Source: a virus
DNA: 64,000 bases
Virus genome (UHGV): UHGV-0033546
Reading direction: 5' to 3' (one strand)
Positions 2,503 to 56,771 of the stretch are shown piece by piece; positions within the stretch are counted from its first letter, which is position 1; the number at the start of each line of letters is the position of its first letter. The notes below the pieces were generated by a model. It ran no database searches, was not told where the DNA came from, and saw nothing but the letters and a program-made list of their open reading frames with translations. Position numbers and translations under genes: made by a program.

Positions 2503-5500
2503 ATGGCCGAGATTAAAAGAAAGTTCAGAGCGGAAGACGGTCTGGACGCAGGTGGCGATAAAATAATCAACGTAGCTTTAGCTGATCGTACCGTAGGAAC
2601 TGACGGTGTTAACGTTGATTACTTAATTCAAGAAAACACAGTTCAACAATATGATCCAACTCGTGGATATTTAAAAGATTTTGTAATCATTTATGATAAC
2701 CGCTTTTGGGCTGCTATAAATGATATTCCAAAACCGGCAGGAGCTTTTAATAGCGTACGATGGAGAGCGTTACGTACTGATGCAAACTGGACAACTGTTT
2801 CATCAGGACCGTATCAATTAAAATCAGGCGAATCAATTTCGGTTAACACTGCAGCTGGTAATGACATTACATTTACTTTGCCATCTTCTCCAATTGATGG
2901 TGATACTATAGTTCTCCAAGATATTGGAGGAAAACCTGGAGTTAACCAGGTTTTAATTACAGCTCCGGTACAAAGCATTGTAAACTTCAGAGGTCAACAA
3001 GTACGCTCAGTACTAATGACTCATCCAAAATCACAGATAGTTTTAATTTTTAGTAATCGTCTGTGGCAAATGTATGTTGCTGATTATAGCAGAGAAGCGG
3101 CAGTTGTAACGCCAGCGAGTCTTTATCAAGCGCAATCAAACGATTTTATCGTGCGTAGATTTACTTCTGCTTCAGCAATTAATATTAAACTTCCGAGATT
3201 TGCTAATCACGGGGATATCATTAATTTCGTTGATTTGGATAAATTAAATCCTCTTTATCATACAATTGTTACTACATATGATGAAACGACTTCAGTGCAA
3301 GAAGTTGGAACTCATTCCATTGAAGGCCGTACATCTATTGATGGTTTCTTGATGTTTGATGATAATGAGAAACTGTGGAGATTGTTTGACGGGGATAGTA
3401 AAGCCCGTTTACGTATCATAACGACTAATTCAAACATTCGTCCAAATGAAGAAGTTATGGTATTTGGTGCGAATAATGGAACAACTCAAACGATTGAACT
3501 TCAGCTTCCGACCGATATTTCCATTGGTGATACTGTTAAAATTTCCATGAATTATATGAGAAAAGGACAAACAGTTAAAATCAAAGCTGCTGGTGAAGAT
3601 AAAATTGCTTCTTCAGTTCAATTGCTGCAATTCCCAAAACGTTCAGAATATCCGCCTGAAACTAAATGGGTGACTGTTCAAGAATTAGTTTTTAATGGCG
3701 AAACCAATTATGTTCCAGTTTTACAGCTTGCTTATATCGAAGATTCCGATGGAAAATATTGGGTTGTACAGCAAAACGTTCCAACTGTAGAAAGAGTAGA
3801 CTCTTTAAATAATTCTACCAGAGCAAGATTAGGCGTAATTGCTTTAGCTACACAGGCTCAAGCTAATGCAGATTTAGAAAATTCTCCACAAAAAGAATTA
3901 GCAATTACTCCAGAAACGTTAGCTAATCGTACTGCTACAGAAACTCGCAGAGGTATTGCAAGAATAGCAACAACTGCACAAGTTAACCAGGATACTACAT
4001 TCTCTTTTGCAGATGACCTTATCATCACTCCTAAAAAGCTGAATGAAAGAACTGCTACAGAAACTCGCAGGGGTGTCGCTGAAATTGCTACGCAGCAGGA
4101 AACTAACACAGGTACTGATGATACTACAATCATCACTCCTAAAAAGCTTCAAGCTCGTCAAGGTTCTGAGTCATTATCTGGTATTGTAACTTTTGTATCT
4201 ACTGCAGGTGCTACTCCAGCTTCTAGTCGTGAATTAAATGGTACAAATGTTTATAATAAAAATACTAATAATTTAGTAGTTTCACCTAAAGCCTTGGACC
4301 AGTATAAAGCTACTCCAACACAACAAGGTGCGGTAATTTTAGCAGTTGAAAGTGAAGTAATTGCTGGACAAAGCCAAGAAGGATGGGCAAATGCGGTTGT
4401 AACGCCAGAAACGTTACATAAAAAGACATCAACTGATGGAAGAATTGGTTTAATTGAAATTGCTACGCAAAGTGAAGTTAATACAGGAACTGATTATACT
4501 CGTGCAGTCACTCCTAAAACTTTAAATGACCGTAAAGCAACTGAAAGTTTAAGTGGTATAGCTGAAATTGCTACACAAGTTGAATTCGACGCAGGCGTCG
4601 ACGATACTCGTATCTCTACACCATTAAAAATTAAAACTAGATTTAATAGTACTGATCGTACTTCTGTTGTTGCTCTATCTGGATTAGTTGAATCAGGAAC
4701 TCTCTGGGACCATTATACCCTTAATATTCTTGAAGCAAATGAGACACAACGTGGTACACTTCGTGTGGCTACACAAGTTGAAGCTACTGCAGGAACATTA
4801 GATAATGTTTTAATAACTCCTAAAAAGCTTTTAGGTACTAAATCTACCGAATCGCAGGAAGGTGTTATTAAAGTTGCAACTCAGTCTGAAACTGTGACTG
4901 GAACGTCAGCAAATACTGCTGTATCTCCAAAAAATTTAAAATGGATTGTGCAGAGTGAACCTACTTGGGCAGCTACTACCCTGGTAAGAGGTTTTGTTAA
5001 AACTTCATCTGGTTCAATTACATTCGTTGGTAATGATACAGTTGGGTCAACGCAGTCATTAGAATTATACGAAAAAAATAGCTATGCAGTATCGCCATAT
5101 GAATTAAACCGTGTATTAGCAAATTATTTGCCGTTAAAAGCAAAAGCTGCAGATAGTAATTTATTAGATGGTCTAGATTCATCTCAGTTCATTCGTAGGG
5201 ATATTGCGCAGACGGTTAATGGTTCACTAACCTTAACCCAACAAACGAATCTGAGTGCCCCTCTTGTATCATCTAGTACTGCTACGTTTGGTGGGTCAGT
5301 TTCAGCAAATAGTACATTAACTATTTCTAATACTGGAACAGCAACTCGATTGATTTTTGAGAAAGGACCTCAAACTGGAACAAACCCAGCCCAAACGATG
5401 ACTGTCAGAGTGTGGGGAAATCAATTTAGTGGGGAATCAGACACGACACGTTCTACTGTATTTGAAGTTAGTGATGAAACATCTAGTCATTTTTATTCTC

Positions 5501-6372
5501 AGCGCAATAAAGCCGGAAATATAACATTTAATATCAACGGTACAGTAACTCCGATAAATGTTAATGCTTCAGGAACATTGAATGCAAATGGTGTAGCAAC
5601 ATTTGGTAATTCAGTTACTGCAACTGGTGAAATTATTTCTCGAAGCGCAAATGCTTTCCGTGCTATTAACGGAAATTATGGTTTCATTGTTCGCAATGAC
5701 GGATCAGTAACGAATTTTATGCTTACTGCATCAGGTGATCAGACTGGTGGATTTAATGGATTACGCCCATTAGCTATTAATAATGCATCTGGTCAAGTAA
5801 CGATTGGTGAAAGCTTAATAATCGCCAAAGGTGCTACTATAAATTCAGGTGGTTTGACTGTTAACTCGAGAATTCGTTCTCAGGGCACTAAAACATCTGA
5901 CTTATATACCCGTGCGCCAACATCTGATACTGTAGGATTCTGGTCAATCGATATTAACGATTCAGCCACTTATAACCAATTCCCAGGTTATTTTAAAATG
6001 GTTGAAAAAACTAATGAAGTGACTGGACTTCCATATTTAGAACGTGGCGAAGAAGTTAAATCTCCTGGTACACTGACTCAGTTTGGTAACACACTTGATT
6101 CGCTTTACCAAGATTGGATTACTTATCCAACAACTCCAGAAGCGCGTACCACTCGCTGGACGCGTACATGGCAGAAAACCAAAAACTCTTGGTCAAGTTT
6201 TGTTCAGGTATTTGATGGAGGTAACCCTCCTCAACCGTCTGATATCGGTGCTTTACCATCTGATAATGCTACAATGGGTAATCTTACCATTCGTGATTTC
6301 TTACGAATTGGTAATGTTCGCATTATTCCTGACCCAGTGAATAAAACTGTTAAATTTGAATGGGTTGAATAA
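2503..6372 (+). CDS. 34: Long tail fibre proximal subunit gp34
   Basis: 1289-aa ORF, same length as T4 gp34; first gene of the 34-38 operon; GGAG RBS. Confidence 0.95.
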   Translation: MAEIKRKFRAEDGLDAGGDKIINVALADRTVGTDGVNVDYLIQENTVQQYDPTRGYLKDFVIIYDNRFWAAINDIPKPAGAFNSVRWRALRTDANWTTVSSGPYQLKSGESISVNTAAGNDITFTLPSSPIDGDTIVLQDIGGKPGVNQVLITAPVQSIVNFRGQQVRSVLMTHPKSQIVLIFSNRLWQMYVADYSREAAVVTPASLYQAQSNDFIVRRFTSASAINIKLPRFANHGDIINFVDLDKLNPLYHTIVTTYDETTSVQEVGTHSIEGRTSIDGFLMFDDNEKLWRLFDGDSKARLRIITTNSNIRPNEEVMVFGANNGTTQTIELQLPTDISIGDTVKISMNYMRKGQTVKIKAAGEDKIASSVQLLQFPKRSEYPPETKWVTVQELVFNGETNYVPVLQLAYIEDSDGKYWVVQQNVPTVERVDSLNNSTRARLGVIALATQAQANADLENSPQKELAITPETLANRTATETRRGIARIATTAQVNQDTTFSFADDLIITPKKLNERTATETRRGVAEIATQQETNTGTDDTTIITPKKLQARQGSESLSGIVTFVSTAGATPASSRELNGTNVYNKNTNNLVVSPKALDQYKATPTQQGAVILAVESEVIAGQSQEGWANAVVTPETLHKKTSTDGRIGLIEIATQSEVNTGTDYTRAVTPKTLNDRKATESLSGIAEIATQVEFDAGVDDTRISTPLKIKTRFNSTDRTSVVALSGLVESGTLWDHYTLNILEANETQRGTLRVATQVEATAGTLDNVLITPKKLLGTKSTESQEGVIKVATQSETVTGTSANTAVSPKNLKWIVQSEPTWAATTLVRGFVKTSSGSITFVGNDTVGSTQSLELYEKNSYAVSPYELNRVLANYLPLKAKAADSNLLDGLDSSQFIRRDIAQTVNGSLTLTQQTNLSAPLVSSSTATFGGSVSANSTLTISNTGTATRLIFEKGPQTGTNPAQTMTVRVWGNQFSGESDTTRSTVFEVSDETSSHFYSQRNKAGNITFNINGTVTPINVNASGTLNANGVATFGNSVTATGEIISRSANAFRAINGNYGFIVRNDGSVTNFMLTASGDQTGGFNGLRPLAINNASGQVTIGESLIIAKGATINSGGLTVNSRIRSQGTKTSDLYTRAPTSDTVGFWSIDINDSATYNQFPGYFKMVEKTNEVTGLPYLERGEEVKSPGTLTQFGNTLDSLYQDWITYPTTPEARTTRWTRTWQKTKNSWSSFVQVFDGGNPPQPSDIGALPSDNATMGNLTIRDFLRIGNVRIIPDPVNKTVKFEWVE
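3891..4944 (+). repeat. Degenerate tandem peptide repeats (about 40 aa, at least 8 copies) inside gene 34
   Basis: recurring pattern ...TPxxL..R.ATE(T/S)xxGxxxIAT(Q)xExxxGTDxT... visible in the gp34 translation. Confidence 0.7.
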
Positions 6373-37021: not shown

Positions 37022-37029
37022 TATTTATA
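37022..37029 (-). promoter_or_regulatory. T4 late promoter for soc
   Basis: minus strand TATAAATA about 30 nt upstream of the soc ATG. Confidence 0.65.
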
Positions 37030-50545: not shown

Positions 50546-51232
50546 TTAAAAATCATGGGTAGAATCAGCTTCAAGAGCTACTACATAATTCGCGTGTTCA
50601 CCTTCAAATTTAGCAGCACCTTGTTTACCTTTTGCCCAGAGCAGAAGTTTATAATTTCCTGGTTGCATTTTCATATTTGCCATATTGATAATGAAATTAA
50701 ATGTATTTTCACCATCATAATCACCAAGATTCAAAGAATATTTAACACGGGTCAGAGCAGAATCTTCTACTTTATTAAAACCGTTAATTACGATTTTACC
50801 TTCTTTTACCGTGATAGCAATTGTATCAATTTGCAGACCACGAGATACACGCAACAGTTGTTGAAGGTCTTCAGCTTTAATTTCAGTAACAACAGATGCT
50901 ACCGGGAATGGAATTGGTTTATTAGGAGCAACTACTGTACTCGGATCGGCTGCTGGCCAAAAAATTGTTGAACGAGCATCAGCAATTTTAATATTTCCAT
51001 CTTCTGATTGGGAAATTTCTGCATCATCATTAACTAGGGACAGAATACCGAGAAAACCGTTCAAATCGTAAATTGCTACATCAAAATCAATAGTGTCAGA
51101 AATATTTGCTTCCGCATAAGTTGTACCATTAACTGCGCGAGTCATAATAAATTGACCAGATTTAAGCATAATACCGGAGTTAATAGTAGCGAAATTTTTC
51201 AAAATATTCAGTGTGTCTTTAGATAATTTCAT
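50546..51232 (-). CDS. 45: Sliding clamp gp45
   Basis: 228 aa; T4 gp45 length. Confidence 0.9.
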   Translation of the reverse strand: MKLSKDTLNILKNFATINSGIMLKSGQFIMTRAVNGTTYAEANISDTIDFDVAIYDLNGFLGILSLVNDDAEISQSEDGNIKIADARSTIFWPAADPSTVVAPNKPIPFPVASVVTEIKAEDLQQLLRVSRGLQIDTIAITVKEGKIVINGFNKVEDSALTRVKYSLNLGDYDGENTFNFIINMANMKMQPGNYKLLLWAKGKQGAAKFEGEHANYVVALEADSTHDF

Positions 51233-52116
51233 TTCAATTTCCTATTTACATAATAGTTAGACCAGGACCGTACAGCACCCTGATAAGATTCGTCGTTAAA
51301 CCCATTAGCTACTGCAATTTTACGAAATTTATTATAACTCGGTTTTCCGTAAGCATGCCATAAAGATTTTAATTCATCTTCATGTTCAATCCAAGTTCCT
51401 CTAGCTTTAGATTTTCTAAATTTTGATTTGAATTCCGGTGAATTATTTCTAACAGTTGCTTGAATTGAAGCTCTCTGTCTTCTTTCAGCATTATTCCATA
51501 ACTCTTTTTGAGATTTAGAAATTTTTGATTTTACACTTTCTGAATTCATTATATCACTAAACTTTTTAGCATAACTGCAATCAAGATATTTCAATTTCAT
51601 CTTATTTGAAAGTTTAAGCTTTTTCTCATCGGTCCAGTGATTCTTCATTGAATTAGATATTTTGTATTTTACGTCAGAACTATGTTTGTAACCTTTACGA
51701 ATACCAACATAATCGGGCGTAATTTCAGATTGCGAAAGCTTTACAATTTTTCCAGTTAAAACATTTTTATATGTTCCATATCCTTTAGCGCCAATTAAAG
51801 TATTTTCATCTGCGTATGCTTTATTAAAATATTTTATATTACTTTTTGCTTTAACTTTTAATTGAAAAAATCTTTCCAATTTTCTTGGATCTAATATAGT
51901 TTCAGCTAAAATTTTGACGGTATATTTAGTGGTTTTAATAAGCTCAAAATATTCATCGCTATAACTCGATGACACGCTTCCAGTATAAATCTTTCCAGCT
52001 GAATCAATTATATTTGTTCCATCGAAAATTGCGTCAATTTTCGAACCTATATAATAACATGGAAAAATATTTTTAGCTTCCCGCTCTGGAAAGCTAATAA
52101 GATATACTAAATTCAT
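51229..52116 (-). CDS. Freestanding GIY-YIG-like homing endonuclease (seg-like) with NUMOD3-like repeats
   Basis: 295 aa between 45 and rpbA; N-terminus MNLVY...YYIGSK; two K-SxEx-KIS-S-K-W repeats; paralogous to ORF at 1-234. Confidence 0.6.
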
Positions 52117-52755: not shown

Positions 52756-54438
52756 TTAAACCATTACAGTAAATCGACCAACTTTCTTCATCTGAAGATG
52801 CTGACCATATTCTTGCGGGTCATGGTCTTTATGTGAAATTATAAAAACATTAGTGTTTTTCATTGAATTTATAATATTAGCTACACCTTTAATACCTTCA
52901 GCATCAAATGACCCGTCAAACACTTCATCGAGTATTAATGTACTAATACTAACACCAGATACAATAGAAGCAATATCACGCCAAGTAAATAAAAGAGCAA
53001 TATCAATTCGCGCTTTTTCACCTTCACTAAATGAAGCATAACTAAAATCTTCACGACCACGGGATTTAATTGTTTCATTAAATTCTTCATCTAATGTAAA
53101 CACATAATCCGCTTCCATTATTTTAAGATAATGGTTAATCTGCTTATTAAATAATGGAATGTACTTTTTAATAATAGCACCTTTAATACCAGAATCTTTG
53201 AGCATATCAGTCAAAATTCCTCTGTGGTATTTTTCCATTACTAAATTAGTTTTTGTTTTAACAATTTTATCAAGTTCTTCTTGAAGCAGTGCTATTTCAT
53301 CAGCATGGTCAATAAACTCGGATGATGCTTTTTCGATAGCCGCTTTAACTTTTTTAGCTTTATCTACTGTGGTGATTAAAGACTGCTTTTTATTGCGAAT
53401 ATCATTTGCCAACGTCTGTTGGGTTTTAATATTATCTCGGTATTCATCAACGAGAACTTTTAAATTATCACGATGTGTTGAAAGCTGTTCAAACGAATGT
53501 GTGCATTCAGAAACTTTATCTTTAATTTTAGAAACAACTTTATCACCGGAACTTAATTGTGACAAACAGGTTGGACATAATCCACCTTCGTGATACATAT
53601 TAATGACTTTATTATACGAGTCAATTTTTGATTTAATTAAAAATGCTTCTTGACCGATTTTATTAAATGCATCAGTCGGGTCTTCATCCAAAACAATATT
53701 AACTAATCTTTCATTAGCTTCTTCTATTTCCGATTTTAGTGTTCTAGCTTCTTTTGCCAAATCATCATACATATTCTGTAGACGAGTAAGATTATCACCA
53801 GTTAATTTTTTCTGGCGTTCAACATTATCGTTATATATTTTAATTTGTTGGATAATACTGTCTTTTTTAACATCAAGCACTTGGTTCTGCGAATTTAATT
53901 CACGTATTAGTGCTTTATTAAGCTTATCCATTTCAGCTAATGTTCCTACCTCAAGCAGGTCTTCCACAAGCTTTCTTCGCGCAGGGGTCGACAAACCCAT
54001 GAAAGGGGTATACCCTGCTGTACCAAGGACAACAATCTGCTTGAAACTGGCATATGACATTCCGATAAGCTGTTCAAATTCTGCTTGGAAATCTTTACTG
54101 CTGGCAGATTCATTAAGACGTGTACCGTTAACGGTGATTTCGAAAACGTTTGGTTTTTGTCCTCTTTTGATATAGTACTTTTTCTCATCATATTCCATCC
54201 ACAATTCAACTAAAAGTTCTTTCTTATTTGTGCTGTTTATTAATTGGCCTTTCTTTACATCACGAAATGGCTTGCCAAAAAGCCCAAATGTGATGGCTTC
54301 TAACATAGTAGACTTACCACCGCCATTTCGTCCAGTAATAAGAGTTTTTTGAACCTTATCTAATTGAATGTCAACTCCATTTTGACCAACTGACATTATA
54401 TTTTTATATTTTACTCTATTAAGTTTAAATGATTTCAT
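52756..54438 (-). CDS. 46: Recombination endonuclease subunit gp46 (Rad50/SbcC-like)
   Basis: 560 aa; Walker A GRNGGGKST; T4 gp46 length. Confidence 0.95.
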   Translation of the reverse strand: MKSFKLNRVKYKNIMSVGQNGVDIQLDKVQKTLITGRNGGGKSTMLEAITFGLFGKPFRDVKKGQLINSTNKKELLVELWMEYDEKKYYIKRGQKPNVFEITVNGTRLNESASSKDFQAEFEQLIGMSYASFKQIVVLGTAGYTPFMGLSTPARRKLVEDLLEVGTLAEMDKLNKALIRELNSQNQVLDVKKDSIIQQIKIYNDNVERQKKLTGDNLTRLQNMYDDLAKEARTLKSEIEEANERLVNIVLDEDPTDAFNKIGQEAFLIKSKIDSYNKVINMYHEGGLCPTCLSQLSSGDKVVSKIKDKVSECTHSFEQLSTHRDNLKVLVDEYRDNIKTQQTLANDIRNKKQSLITTVDKAKKVKAAIEKASSEFIDHADEIALLQEELDKIVKTKTNLVMEKYHRGILTDMLKDSGIKGAIIKKYIPLFNKQINHYLKIMEADYVFTLDEEFNETIKSRGREDFSYASFSEGEKARIDIALLFTWRDIASIVSGVSISTLILDEVFDGSFDAEGIKGVANIINSMKNTNVFIISHKDHDPQEYGQHLQMKKVGRFTVMV

Positions 54439-54453
54439 TTTGTATCCAATTGT

Positions 54454-55308
54454 TCACAATGAAGAAAATTCTTTAACTAAAGCCTGTAATGAAGCCTCTA
54501 TTGGATATCCATTCTTAACTAACATTTTCCTAAACATCACATGTTTAGGACGATTATATGATATCCACAATTCATACAATTTATCTTTATTATCCCAATG
54601 ATAGCCTTTTCGTCGAGATGCTATATGAGCTTTTCTAATCTCCGGATTTTTCCAACTAGCAGCTACTGAATTTAATATAGCTATTTTATATTCAGGTTTT
54701 GATAAAGCAGCACGAACAGCCTTTTGGTGTTTAATTTTATTTTCTTCGTTATTAAACCATTCCCTTGAAGCCATTGAAATTTTTTGTTTTGTTTTAAAAT
54801 TATTTAATCTTTCTTTGTTATCTTTCCTATTTTTTGCTACTGAAAAATATTTTAATGCCCTTTCTCTAGCAACATTTCTATTTTGTGGATTTGAATAATA
54901 CTGTTGAAGCCTTTTTGATATTGTGTCACTTACATCCTGTCTTATAAAACTATATTCAGCAGCTATTAAATCAACTTCGGCTAAAGATAAATTTTTATAT
55001 GTTTTTCCTGACATCATTCTATTTAAAGCATTTAGCATTTTTCCATTTTTACCTTTTGCTAATAAGAAATGTGCTTTGAAATGATTAAAATGACTTAAAT
55101 TAACTAAATTCCATGTAGATTTTAAATATTCAGGAAATATTGATTTAGGAAGCACGTGGTGTGCTTCCGTTTTACCTGGAGTTTTAACAGTTGAATTCAT
55201 AGAAATAAAATTAATATAAGACTTGGCGTCTTCTTCACTCAACGCTAATTTTTCAACTAATTCCTTTATTAAAAATTCATCATTAATATCAAGTTTAAAA
55301 TTCTTCAC
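54454..55308 (-). CDS. Freestanding HNH homing endonuclease (mob-like)
   Basis: 284 aa between 47 and 46; HNH motif AHHVLPKS...NLVNLSHFNHFKAH; NUMOD-like basic repeats. Confidence 0.65.
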   Translation of the reverse strand: MKNFKLDINDEFLIKELVEKLALSEEDAKSYINFISMNSTVKTPGKTEAHHVLPKSIFPEYLKSTWNLVNLSHFNHFKAHFLLAKGKNGKMLNALNRMMSGKTYKNLSLAEVDLIAAEYSFIRQDVSDTISKRLQQYYSNPQNRNVARERALKYFSVAKNRKDNKERLNNFKTKQKISMASREWFNNEENKIKHQKAVRAALSKPEYKIAILNSVAASWKNPEIRKAHIASRRKGYHWDNKDKLYELWISYNRPKHVMFRKMLVKNGYPIEASLQALVKEFSSL

Positions 55309-55520
55309 AAAAGATTCCTTTTAATGTATCTTTTAGACCATTCTATCATATCATCATAATCTAAAAAGTATTCATCAAATTCAGCCATGCAAACAACACC
55401 TTGTGCTGCTTTTGATGTGATATAAATTATTCCAACATATCTAGAATCTTCTTCGGTGTAATCAATATTTGCTATGAATTCATCATTAATGTCAAATGTC
55501 GAAAACTTCACAGTATGCAT
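55305..55520 (-). CDS. Hypothetical protein (71 aa)
   Basis: ORF-track 87 aa trimmed to MHTVKF to reduce overlap. Confidence 0.4.
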   Translation of the reverse strand: MHTVKFSTFDINDEFIANIDYTEEDSRYVGIIYITSKAAQGVVCMAEFDEYFLDYDDMIEWSKRYIKRNLL

Positions 55521-55755
55521 CCTTAATACAAGATATGGCTGTATCTTGTATTGATTTAGGTGTGTCATTATCTAAAATGTTGAAGTTAAAAGATACAGCC
55601 CAGTCAGTGCAGACCGTAACCTTTTTAATACAGTTATCTTCAACTTCTAGTGGTTCAAACCAGTATTCAATAATTTCTTTATGACCAATATCATCTTTTA
55701 CTTCGCATTCAAAATGCTGACTCATCATAACATTTTTAAATTCATCAAAAGTCAT
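55492..55755 (-). CDS. Hypothetical protein (87 aa)
   Basis: ATGA overlap with gene 47 stop. Confidence 0.5.
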   Translation of the reverse strand: MTFDEFKNVMMSQHFECEVKDDIGHKEIIEYWFEPLEVEDNCIKKVTVCTDWAVSFNFNILDNDTPKSIQDTAISCIKDAYCEVFDI

Positions 55756-56771
55756 TGTGTTGCCTCTACATATAACTGATTTGCATATTGAATAAGTGCT
55801 TCGCGATCAGAATCAGTGATGTCTGGAATTGCATTAATGTATTCTTCCATCAATGTCTGGAGAGATTGAACTTCAACTTCTTCACTATCATCTGACTCGA
55901 CAGAGTTATCAATCTTTGACACAACTCGTAACGAATGCACAACTTTTTCTAGTTCGGATTCGAACTTCGTTAGATTTTTGTCTACTTCAGTTACTATAAC
56001 ACGTACTGATAGATTTGTAAAATCTTTATAGTCAATTTTCCCCTTAAATGGATATTGAATTCGACGATGCCAGGTGGTGTTGTTTGGAATAAATTCCATT
56101 CGTTCTGTTTCTGTATCAAACATCCAGAACCCGCGAGGGTCATTCTCGTCACCTGCAGTTAGTGTCCATGGTGTCCCAATATATCTGACGTTAGCAGCCT
56201 CAGAGATAGTATGGAAGTGACCAGACCACACCTCTTTATAAGTCTTAAGGAAATCAGGTTCAAGACCGTGAGATTTCATTCCTTTATAAAAATAAAATCC
56301 ATTCAGTTCCCAGTGACCGACACAAAAAGAAGCAGATGAAGTTTTGATATGCTCAAGAATTTCACCAGTATTTTCTTCGCACATCCAGGGAATTAAATCA
56401 ATCAAACATCCGTCAAAATCTACTGTGGTAGGCTTATCATATACTTTAACATTAGGATATTTAGCCAAAAGCTCAGTAGAAGCATTTGGATGCATTACAT
56501 TTTTGTAGTGGAGATCGTGATTTCCTACAATAGTATGTAGGGTAATACCAGCATCATCAAGCATTTGAACTATTTCACGAGCGAACTCCATAGTTTTATG
56601 TGTGATTGCTTTTCGCACATCAAAAATATCGCCATATTGAATCCATGTAGTAATTCCATTTTTCTTAGAATATTCTATCGCTTGTTTAATTCCATCAATT
56701 TGAATACCGCGAATCCACTCATCATCAGCTTTAACACCTAAATGCCAATCACCTAAATTTAAAATTTTCAT
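55752..56771 (-). CDS. 47: Recombination nuclease subunit gp47 (Mre11/SbcD-like)
   Basis: 339 aa; phosphoesterase motifs (GDWH, GNHD); T4 gp47 length. Confidence 0.95.
   Translation of the reverse strand: MKILNLGDWHLGVKADDEWIRGIQIDGIKQAIEYSKKNGITTWIQYGDIFDVRKAITHKTMEFAREIVQMLDDAGITLHTIVGNHDLHYKNVMHPNASTELLAKYPNVKVYDKPTTVDFDGCLIDLIPWMCEENTGEILEHIKTSSASFCVGHWELNGFYFYKGMKSHGLEPDFLKTYKEVWSGHFHTISEAANVRYIGTPWTLTAGDENDPRGFWMFDTETERMEFIPNNTTWHRRIQYPFKGKIDYKDFTNLSVRVIVTEVDKNLTKFESELEKVVHSLRVVSKIDNSVESDDSEEVEVQSLQTLMEEYINAIPDITDSDREALIQYANQLYVEATQ

Follow-up and report, generated by a model that had tools for sequence, protein, structure and literature searches.

A probable free-standing Mob-type HNH homing endonuclease gene near the start of recombination gene 46 in T4-like phages

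An open reading frame (ORF) of 284 amino acids on the minus strand of the viral genome UHGV-0033546 (positions 54454-55308) is best explained as a selfish, free-standing homing endonuclease gene (HEG) of the Mob family and HNH type whose insertion point is at the 5' end of recombination gene 46. We put the probability of this explanation at roughly 0.8. The stretch of DNA analysed, referred to as the window, is 64,000 nucleotides long and is a segment of a Tequatrovirus (T4-like) genome, which across positions 54000-56200 is 98.5% identical to phage LYE-01. The element is of the Mob HNH kind, lies within neither an intron nor an intein and occurs sporadically, at a fixed site, among close relatives. 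In cells co-infected by T-even phages, free-standing homing endonucleases influence which of the alleles persist. To our knowledge, only a few of those of T-even phages have been characterised, namely SegA-G, MobA and MobE.

The ORF starts with GTG, is intact in the window and ends in TGA (54454-54456). Its residues 49-80 read AHHVLPKSIFPEYLKSTWNLVNLSHFNHFKAH, which confirms both the ORF and the motif quoted in the original prediction, made from this sequence alone. Two substitutions, A146V and S211L, set it apart from the other copies. A chance ORF can be dismissed, since an exhaustive phmmer search recovers 998 homologues at E<1e-3 and since 72 phage records contain a copy whose protein is 95-99% identical. 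The exhaustive search was needed to find relatives, as a word-indexed protein search returned 7 matches only. According to the ORF list and profile searches, the minus strand encodes, in this order, the metallophosphoesterase gene 47 (55752-56771), 46.2 (T4_Y03C, 55492-55755), 46.1 (55305-55511, assigned by a Pfam DUF5487 match at 2e-48 and by the T4 annotation), the HEG and gene 46 (52756-54438). The latter, which is the host of the insertion, encodes a Rad50/SbcC-like recombination nuclease subunit, as indicated by Pfam AAA_23, SMC_N and Rad50 zinc hook matches and by the T4 annotation. T4 has the same gene order minus the HEG. The ORF had been predicted to interrupt the pair formed by genes 47 and 46. 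It does lie in the interval between them, but what it actually splits is gene 46 itself, downstream of 46.1.

Alignment of the window with T4 reveals that the insertion is 870 bp long, in frame and located after codon 6 of gene 46. In T4, gene 46 begins with GTGAAGAATTTTAAACTT followed directly by AATAGAGTAAAATAT, and its GTG overlaps the stop codon of 46.1. In the window, the 18 nucleotides identical to T4 GTGAAGAATTTTAAACTT (GTG and codons 2-6, MKNFKL; 55291-55308, minus strand) have become codons 1-6 of the HEG. Their GTG overlaps the TGA stop of 46.1 (GTGA), and 7 nucleotides upstream of it lies the Shine-Dalgarno sequence AAGGA (55316-55320, minus strand, read from the sequence), which is the same in T4, where it is the ribosome-binding site of gene 46. 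The stop codon of the HEG is followed by a 15-nucleotide spacer, ACAATTGGATACAAA (54439-54453, minus strand), after which gene 46 restarts from an ATG with the replacement sequence ATGAAATCATTTAAACTT (MKSFKL; 54421-54438, minus strand), again followed directly by AATAGAGTAAAATAT. This replacement start is an imperfect direct repeat of 55291-55308. The two 18-mers lie 870 nucleotides (290 codons) apart in the same frame, and their core, TTTAAACTT[A/G]ATA, was also recovered by a repeat search (family D5). HEG and gene 46 consequently share one reading frame, with one stop and five sense codons between them. Moreover, the first 15 nucleotides of the replacement start, ATGAAATCATTTAAA, are identical to the gene 46 start of RB69, and the HEG spacer, GGATACAAAATG, resembles GAATACATATG, the end of RB69 46.1 at the 46.1/46 junction. 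Together, the two RB69-like segments suggest that the cassette was imported from a relative outside Tequatrovirus.

The captured GTG is the only plausible start of the HEG, because Y31 is invariant, alignments with homologues begin at residues 7-17, and the first in-frame ATG corresponds to M37. The HEG thus appears to have no start of its own and would be translated from the resident initiation region of gene 46 (AAGGA plus GTG). The element also explains the inconsistent annotation of the gene 46 start and of the "hypothetical proteins" in this interval. We also considered whether the insertion could be a group I intron, which was rejected since no Rfam intron family is found in 54200-55700, or an intein, which was rejected despite the in-frame insertion, since a TGA closes the HEG and gene 46 restarts from a separate ATG. 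Sigma-70-like promoter matches that could belong to the HEG are at background level (17 found versus 13.8 expected), the nearest match to the T4 late promoter (TATAAATA), at 37022, lies more than 17 kb away from the locus, and no minus-strand terminator was found inside the element. On this basis, the HEG is most likely read within the 47-46 transcript. Finally, a hairpin sequestering the ribosome-binding site at the new gene 46 start, as in mobE, is not supported, the RNA structure in this region being no more stable than shuffled sequences (z = -0.10).

How widespread the insertion is was determined in the GenBank phage collection, because only two loci, both of them empty sites, were recovered when IMG/VR was scanned with the exact junction pattern. 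Among 518 Tequatrovirus records, which include duplicate and laboratory-strain entries, the 46.1/46 junction is uninterrupted in 446 and split by the HEG in 72. The same 72 records hold the whole interval of the window together with the 95-99% identical protein. Presence of the element is therefore strain-specific, as had been predicted, and conservation in all relatives was not found. Junction sequences were compared in 16 loci, and the junction is identical in eight out of eight HEG-containing loci that were read (the window, LYE-01, T6, T2, RB51, IsaacDaniel, PP01 and OMNI12). HEG-containing phages span several ICTV species (T2, T6, RB51, pp01, ime09 and gee9062), and two phages of one species can differ: IsaacDaniel has the HEG and ime09 lacks it. 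The HEG diverges by only about 1% between phages whose gene 47 diverges by 8-10%. Moreover, in IsaacDaniel the HEG and the gene 46 start are T6-like, and from about nucleotide 546 onwards the sequence is ime09-like over more than 50 consecutive informative sites.

The first approximately 70 nucleotides of gene 46 exist in Tequatrovirus as two alleles, which show 14 differences in about 60 nucleotides and are almost identical beyond. Identity between the HEG-linked allele A and allele B of HEG-less Tequatrovirus is 75% in nucleotides 19-69 of gene 46 and 95-99% in nucleotides 70-900. The divergent patch, delimited by identity comparison across genera, comprises codons 7-23 (54370-54420, minus strand). 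HEG-less phages with allele A (T4, PST) read ...CTT AATAGAGTAAAATATAAAAATATAATGTCAGTTGGTCAAAATGGGATTGAC and HEG-less phages with allele B (Sf22, RB7, RB27, ime09) read ...CTA AACCGAGTTAGGTATCAAAATATAATGTCAGTAGGTGGAAATCCTATTGAC. Identity bands divide the records into about 372 that are B-like, about 74 with allele A but without HEG, and 72 with the HEG. Allele A is present in all HEG-containing loci that were read, and 71 out of the 72 HEG-containing records give the second place in a megablast search that is expected for A. We infer that the patch may be the immunity or target region of the enzyme. Two further observations concern the same part of gene 46. In several GenBank and RefSeq records, those of RB7, RB27 and ime09, the gene (504-2144) is annotated from an internal ATG (Met15) instead of the GTG overlapping the 46.1 stop, so that the polymorphic patch lies partly outside the annotated coding sequence. 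Furthermore, ime09 has a second patch at nucleotides ~396-495 of gene 46 (window ~53944-54043; alignment columns 4089-4188), with about 20 substitutions in 100 nucleotides, that is not shared by the other Tequatrovirus loci examined.

Homologues of the HEG with 45-55% identity occupy the same gene 46 locus in two other genera, in 10 of approximately 155 Mosigvirus and in 5 of 16 Gelderlandvirus records. The closest relatives of the protein, at 45% identity, are among them. In the Mosigvirus SQ17 the homologue lies immediately upstream of gene 46 and overlaps its start; in the Gelderlandvirus SEA1 it is found between genes 47 and 46. The SQ17 HEG begins with the first seven codons of 46.1 (MTKTDYE, the sequence also seen in RB69 46.1) and stands in for the remainder of that gene, a second case of start capture. 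The Mosigvirus HEG (SQ17 2944-3804) thus takes the place of 46.1 (RB69 1245-1484, DUF5487) rather than adjoining it, which implies that 46.1 is dispensable there. In the Gelderlandvirus S16, the 46.1 homologue is annotated with 40 amino acids, and an upstream GTG overlapping the gene 47 stop would lengthen it.

Both genera were compared with HEG-less genus-mates, RB69 for SQ17 and S16 for SEA1. SQ17 and RB69 are 76% identical in nucleotides 19-69 of gene 46 and 98% in nucleotides 70-900; for SEA1 and S16 the corresponding values are 57% and 100%. In the core of the patch (nucleotides 34-66), RB69 is 88% identical to Tequatrovirus allele B and 64% to SQ17, and SQ17 in turn resembles Tequatrovirus allele A more (79-82%). 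At the protein level, the HEG-less alleles of the three genera encode ...Q12...G18-G19...P21 and the HEG-linked alleles K/S12...G18-Q19. The three genera share the codon (~22-23) at which the patch ends, and in Mosigvirus only codons 12-22 of gene 46 are still of the HEG type. These identities and residues indicate that the patch tracks the HEG and not the genus, a grouping by HEG status that carries limited statistical weight since the patch is short (33-51 nucleotides).

By analogy with characterised enzymes, we infer that the HEG product would home by nicking or cutting at gene 46. In a mixed infection, the enzyme would attack HEG-less genomes near the start of the gene, and recombinational repair from the HEG-containing genome would copy in the HEG together with the adjoining gene 46 sequence. 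This model is drawn from the established behaviour of MobE, MobA, SegF and SegG (PMC2988022). Where exactly the target might lie is a more evenly balanced matter. Our favoured proposal, to which we would give even odds, places it in the range of codons ~12-22 of the allele that is common among HEG-less phages (...TATCAAAATATAATGTCAGTAGGTGGAAATCCTATTGAC...) and holds that the linked patch protects HEG-containing genomes by exchanging GGTGGAAATCCT for GGTCAAAATGGA, among other substitutions. It is favoured because the association between HEG and patch has outlasted recombination in three genera and because codons 12-22 are all that Mosigvirus has kept of the HEG-type sequence.

A different and less probable arrangement is a classical target, in which the enzyme recognises the uninterrupted allele A across the insertion point, GTGAAGAATTTTAAACTT joined to AATAGAG, and allele B is resistant. 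The HEG could then spread only among allele A genomes. This accounts equally well for the restriction of the HEG to allele A, in that about half of the allele A records contain it (72 versus approximately 74) and none of the approximately 372 allele B records does. Moreover, a site spanning the junction would not survive the five changes that distinguish the regenerated start (ATGAAATCA versus GTGAAGAAT). However, the Q19-type patch is found with the HEG and the G19-type patch without it in three genera, suggesting that the patch travels with the HEG and did not already exist as its target, and those free-standing T4 HEGs for which studies exist cleave the adjacent gene in phages lacking the HEG, with the donor carrying polymorphisms (PMC2988022). 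Alternatively, the patch could have a neutral boundary, reflecting a first block that is conserved enough for crossover between genera rather than a target site.

If, as in the favoured proposal, the patch arrives with the HEG, the HEG-less allele A of T4 is best read as a loss. T4-type genomes with allele A but no HEG would then be derivatives in which the HEG was deleted between the 18-bp repeats. Recombination within TTTAAACTT, which is common to both 18-mers, yields exactly the T4 sequence, and the start of gene 46 in T4 could be a scar left by a HEG copy that has since disappeared. More tentatively, and at somewhat less than even odds, a Mob lineage specialised on gene 46 may exist in the three genera, characterised by a captured start in place of one of its own (codons 1-6 of gene 46 for Tequatrovirus, codons 1-7 of gene 46.1 for Mosigvirus), by a cleavage-immune gene 46 allele of about 50 nucleotides that always accompanies the HEG, and by a scar that makes T4 an immune empty site.

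The state of the individual copies bears on whether the element is still mobile. The HEG is uninterrupted, with intact catalytic residues, in 59 of the 72 records and disrupted in the remaining 13, by independent lesions in at least four lineages. T2 strains carry a 2-nucleotide deletion near codon 203 that causes a frameshift, RB51, RB68 and Ac3 have a 1-nucleotide deletion in an A-run near codon 175, and G2133 and MLP2 show other lesions. As far as can be judged from the genomes compared, the combination of patchy occurrence at one constant site with mosaic flanks and repeated, independent decay is the signature that a homing element would be expected to leave. The element might instead be an immobile passenger or a domesticated gene, that is, a former HEG that is kept by its linkage to the essential gene 46 or by a benefit to the phage, such as the exclusion of competitors or the modulation of gp46 expression. 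This reading gains from the facts that translation of gene 46 relies on sequence supplied by the element, so that imprecise loss would be lethal, that the DNA has been retained even where the copy is disrupted, and that diversity among the copies is low. We nevertheless consider it unlikely, since most copies are intact down to the catalytic residues, since both the patchy spread over species and the mosaic nature of the flanks point to recent transfer, and since phages with frameshifted copies (T2, RB51) are viable, which shows that the protein is dispensable.

The assignment of the protein to the HNH endonucleases is based on several lines of evidence. It matches PHROG 655 ("homing endonuclease") with an E-value of 1.2e-44 over residues 1-282 and phrog_12434 ("HNH endonuclease") with 4.8e-15. 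The HNH profile search proposed as a check of the original prediction is thus positive in PHROG and blank elsewhere: the Pfam search gave neither an HNH nor a NUMOD match at E<=1, the NCBIfam search and a search of PDB sequences with the single sequence gave no match, and a PDB search with a profile of 92 sequences gave low-complexity helical noise only. Homology to Mob proteins is detected for PST MobC (36% identity, 3e-21) and T4 MobD (30%, 9e-11) by tblastn, and for T4 MobB by BLASTP (3e-8, with 31% identity across the HNH domain). H50, H51, P54, N67, H76 and H80 vary hardly or not at all in alignments comprising 92 and 100 homologues, and T47, H50, H51, P54, N67, L71, H76, A79 and H80 are invariant between the HEG, its Mosigvirus and Gelderlandvirus homologues, MobC, MobD and MobB. 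In the HNH, or His-Me, constellation, the HH pair contributes the histidine that acts as general base and is followed by a structural asparagine and by a metal-ligand histidine or asparagine. This constellation is kept as H50, H51, N67, H76 and H80, both in the 100 homologues and in the alignment with MobB, MobC and MobD. Residues 24-50 of T4 MobB reach the gathering score of Pfam HNH PF01844 and align column for column with residues 47-71 of the HEG. Only 4 of 92 HEG homologues match PF01844, suggesting that the group is a divergent HNH subfamily that is mostly missed by Pfam.

The invariant columns, the structural models and the MobB alignment place the HNH (beta-beta-alpha-metal) core, with T47, H50, H51, P54, N67, L71, H76 and H80, at residues 47-80 (55069-55170, minus strand). 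The AlphaFold model has a pLDDT of 93.2 for the full-length protein and of 91.7 for residues 1-110. In the models, two strands (47-51 and 68-72) and one helix (73-84) make up a beta-beta-alpha core at 47-84, followed by an all-helical C-terminal half (residues ~109-284; 54457-54984, minus strand). Fold searches with these models gave weak results, since helical noise scores as high as the HNH match and helical repeats dominate when the full model is used. The C-terminal half is presumably a DNA-binding domain made of NUMOD3-like repeats and a terminal helical module. The NUMOD-like repeats of the original prediction are not matched by any profile at E<=1, but three of them can be discerned by eye (YYSNPQNR, WFNNEENK and WKNPEIRK, of the type [S]x3-7[WY]x[N]P[EQ]x[RK]), and NUMOD3 is detected in 29 of the 92 homologues. 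We conclude that the protein is in all probability a Mob-type HNH endonuclease, as predicted: PHROG matches, homology to MobB, MobC and MobD, the invariant HH..N..H..H, the PF01844 alignment through MobB and the beta-beta-alpha AlphaFold model agree on this, with motif and homology being clear and the fold weakly supported. The notion of a DNA-binding or regulatory protein that merely resembles HNH proteins could draw on the missing Pfam, NCBIfam and PDB sequence matches and on the weak fold matches, but is highly improbable given that HH..N..H..H is invariant in 100 homologues and aligned with the above-threshold Pfam match of MobB, and that MobA-E are classed in the main HNH group of the His-Me finger proteins (PMC5714182).

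At the DNA level, a perfect 9-bp inverted repeat with a 3-nucleotide loop (GGAAGCACGTGGTGTGCTTCC; 55148-55168) lies inside the codons for TEAHHVLP, which include the catalytic HH motif. It was flagged as terminator-like on the plus (antisense) strand, and there is no such palindrome in the corresponding sequence of SQ17.

Further ORFs were noted in the neighbourhood of gene 46. A second free-standing HEG-like ORF of 295 amino acids (51229-52116, minus strand) is situated between rpbA and gene 45, where T4 has a 55-nucleotide spacer only. It matches PHROG 655 at 3e-32 and phrog_7504 at 3e-17, has no Pfam match, and its N-terminus is GIY-YIG-like by look (VYLISF...YYIGSK). The C-terminal halves of this Seg-like ORF and of the HEG are 27% identical (E 2e-12). 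Only 25 of 521 records hold the interval containing it. In the window, the block consisting of 46, 45.2 and rpbA is thus flanked by two sporadic HEGs. Besides its frameshifted HEG, RB51 has a further ORF annotated as similar to mobB (5055-5768), which is located between 46 and 45.2 and runs on the opposite strand. Finally, an ORF of about 620 nucleotides that overlaps the gene 47 start is located between alpha-gt (or its equivalent) and gene 47 in LYE-01 (4250-4873) and SEA1 (1372-1992). It takes the place of 47.1 in LYE-01. Neither the window nor T4 has this ORF, which could represent one more variable insert.

The element resides in the gene for a Rad50-like nuclease subunit, and gp46/47 is a candidate for processing the break during homing (PMC2988022). 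It is apparently intact in T6 and in many phages that are candidates for therapy, and frameshifted in T2. It would make a compact natural system for studying how a HEG can settle in a coding sequence and leave the gene alive, with one start codon captured and another supplied. The same system would serve for the questions of how an immune allele stays linked to a HEG over several genera and how HEG loss gives rise to resistant empty sites. Many records already carry the RefSeq label "homing endonuclease". Table 5 of Petrov et al. 2010 lists one "other HNH" HEG each in T2, T6 and RB51 without giving loci, and these entries would fit the gene 46 HEG. In the literature searched, we found no experimental or descriptive paper on it. 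Start capture and replacement, the in-frame geometry, the fidelity to one locus in three genera and the linked patch appear, within that literature, not to have been described before. These features are nonetheless variations on known themes, namely Aeh1 mobE, replacement by SegH and Hef, and intronless homing with donor polymorphisms. Thus, the original prediction was essentially right, and the HEG is an ordinary kind of element with a testable twist.

The closest experimental precedent among the HNH Mob proteins is MobE, whose gene lies between nrdA and nrdB and which nicks the adjacent essential gene of HEG-less phages, resulting in high-frequency inheritance and co-conversion (PMC2988022). 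The same mechanism would be expected of the gene 46 HEG, although mobE is intergenic and has its own regulated initiation region. As is the case for SegF and SegG, which are associated with T4 genes 56 and 32, the HEG product would cut the adjacent conserved gene of a rival, the donor allele being different, and would cause localised marker exclusion. SegF and SegG, however, are GIY-YIG enzymes that make double-strand breaks, and the immune allele of the gene 46 HEG is deduced from population data. With T4 MobB, MobC and MobD the HEG shares 30-36% identity, the free-standing and sporadic occurrence in T-even phages, and an architecture in which an N-terminal HNH domain (T-E-x-H-H-[IV]-x-P ... 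N-L-V-x-L ... H-x3-H) is followed by a helical, DNA-binding C-terminal half. It differs from them in its locus, which is gene 46 rather than alpha-gt, nrdD/G or nrdC.11, in a longer loop between HH and N (LPKSIFPEYLKSTWN) and in lacking its own start codon; none of MobA-E is its orthologue, and, unlike MobB and MobC, it has neither a NUMOD1 nor an I-HmuI-like module. In Aeh1, mobE reportedly splits nrdA into a gene in pieces. There too, a Mob HEG resides inside the coding sequence of an essential gene that still functions, but the Aeh1 host protein is divided into two polypeptides, whereas in the present case six codons are duplicated and gene 46 is whole from its new start. Finally, in work by Sandegren et al. 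from 2005, SegH and Hef are said to replace mobC and mobE. Similarly, different or divergent HEGs are found at one locus in different T4-like phages here, with the Mosigvirus homologue replacing 46.1. What sets the gene 46 element apart from SegH and Hef is that a single HEG lineage is held at one target gene over three genera.
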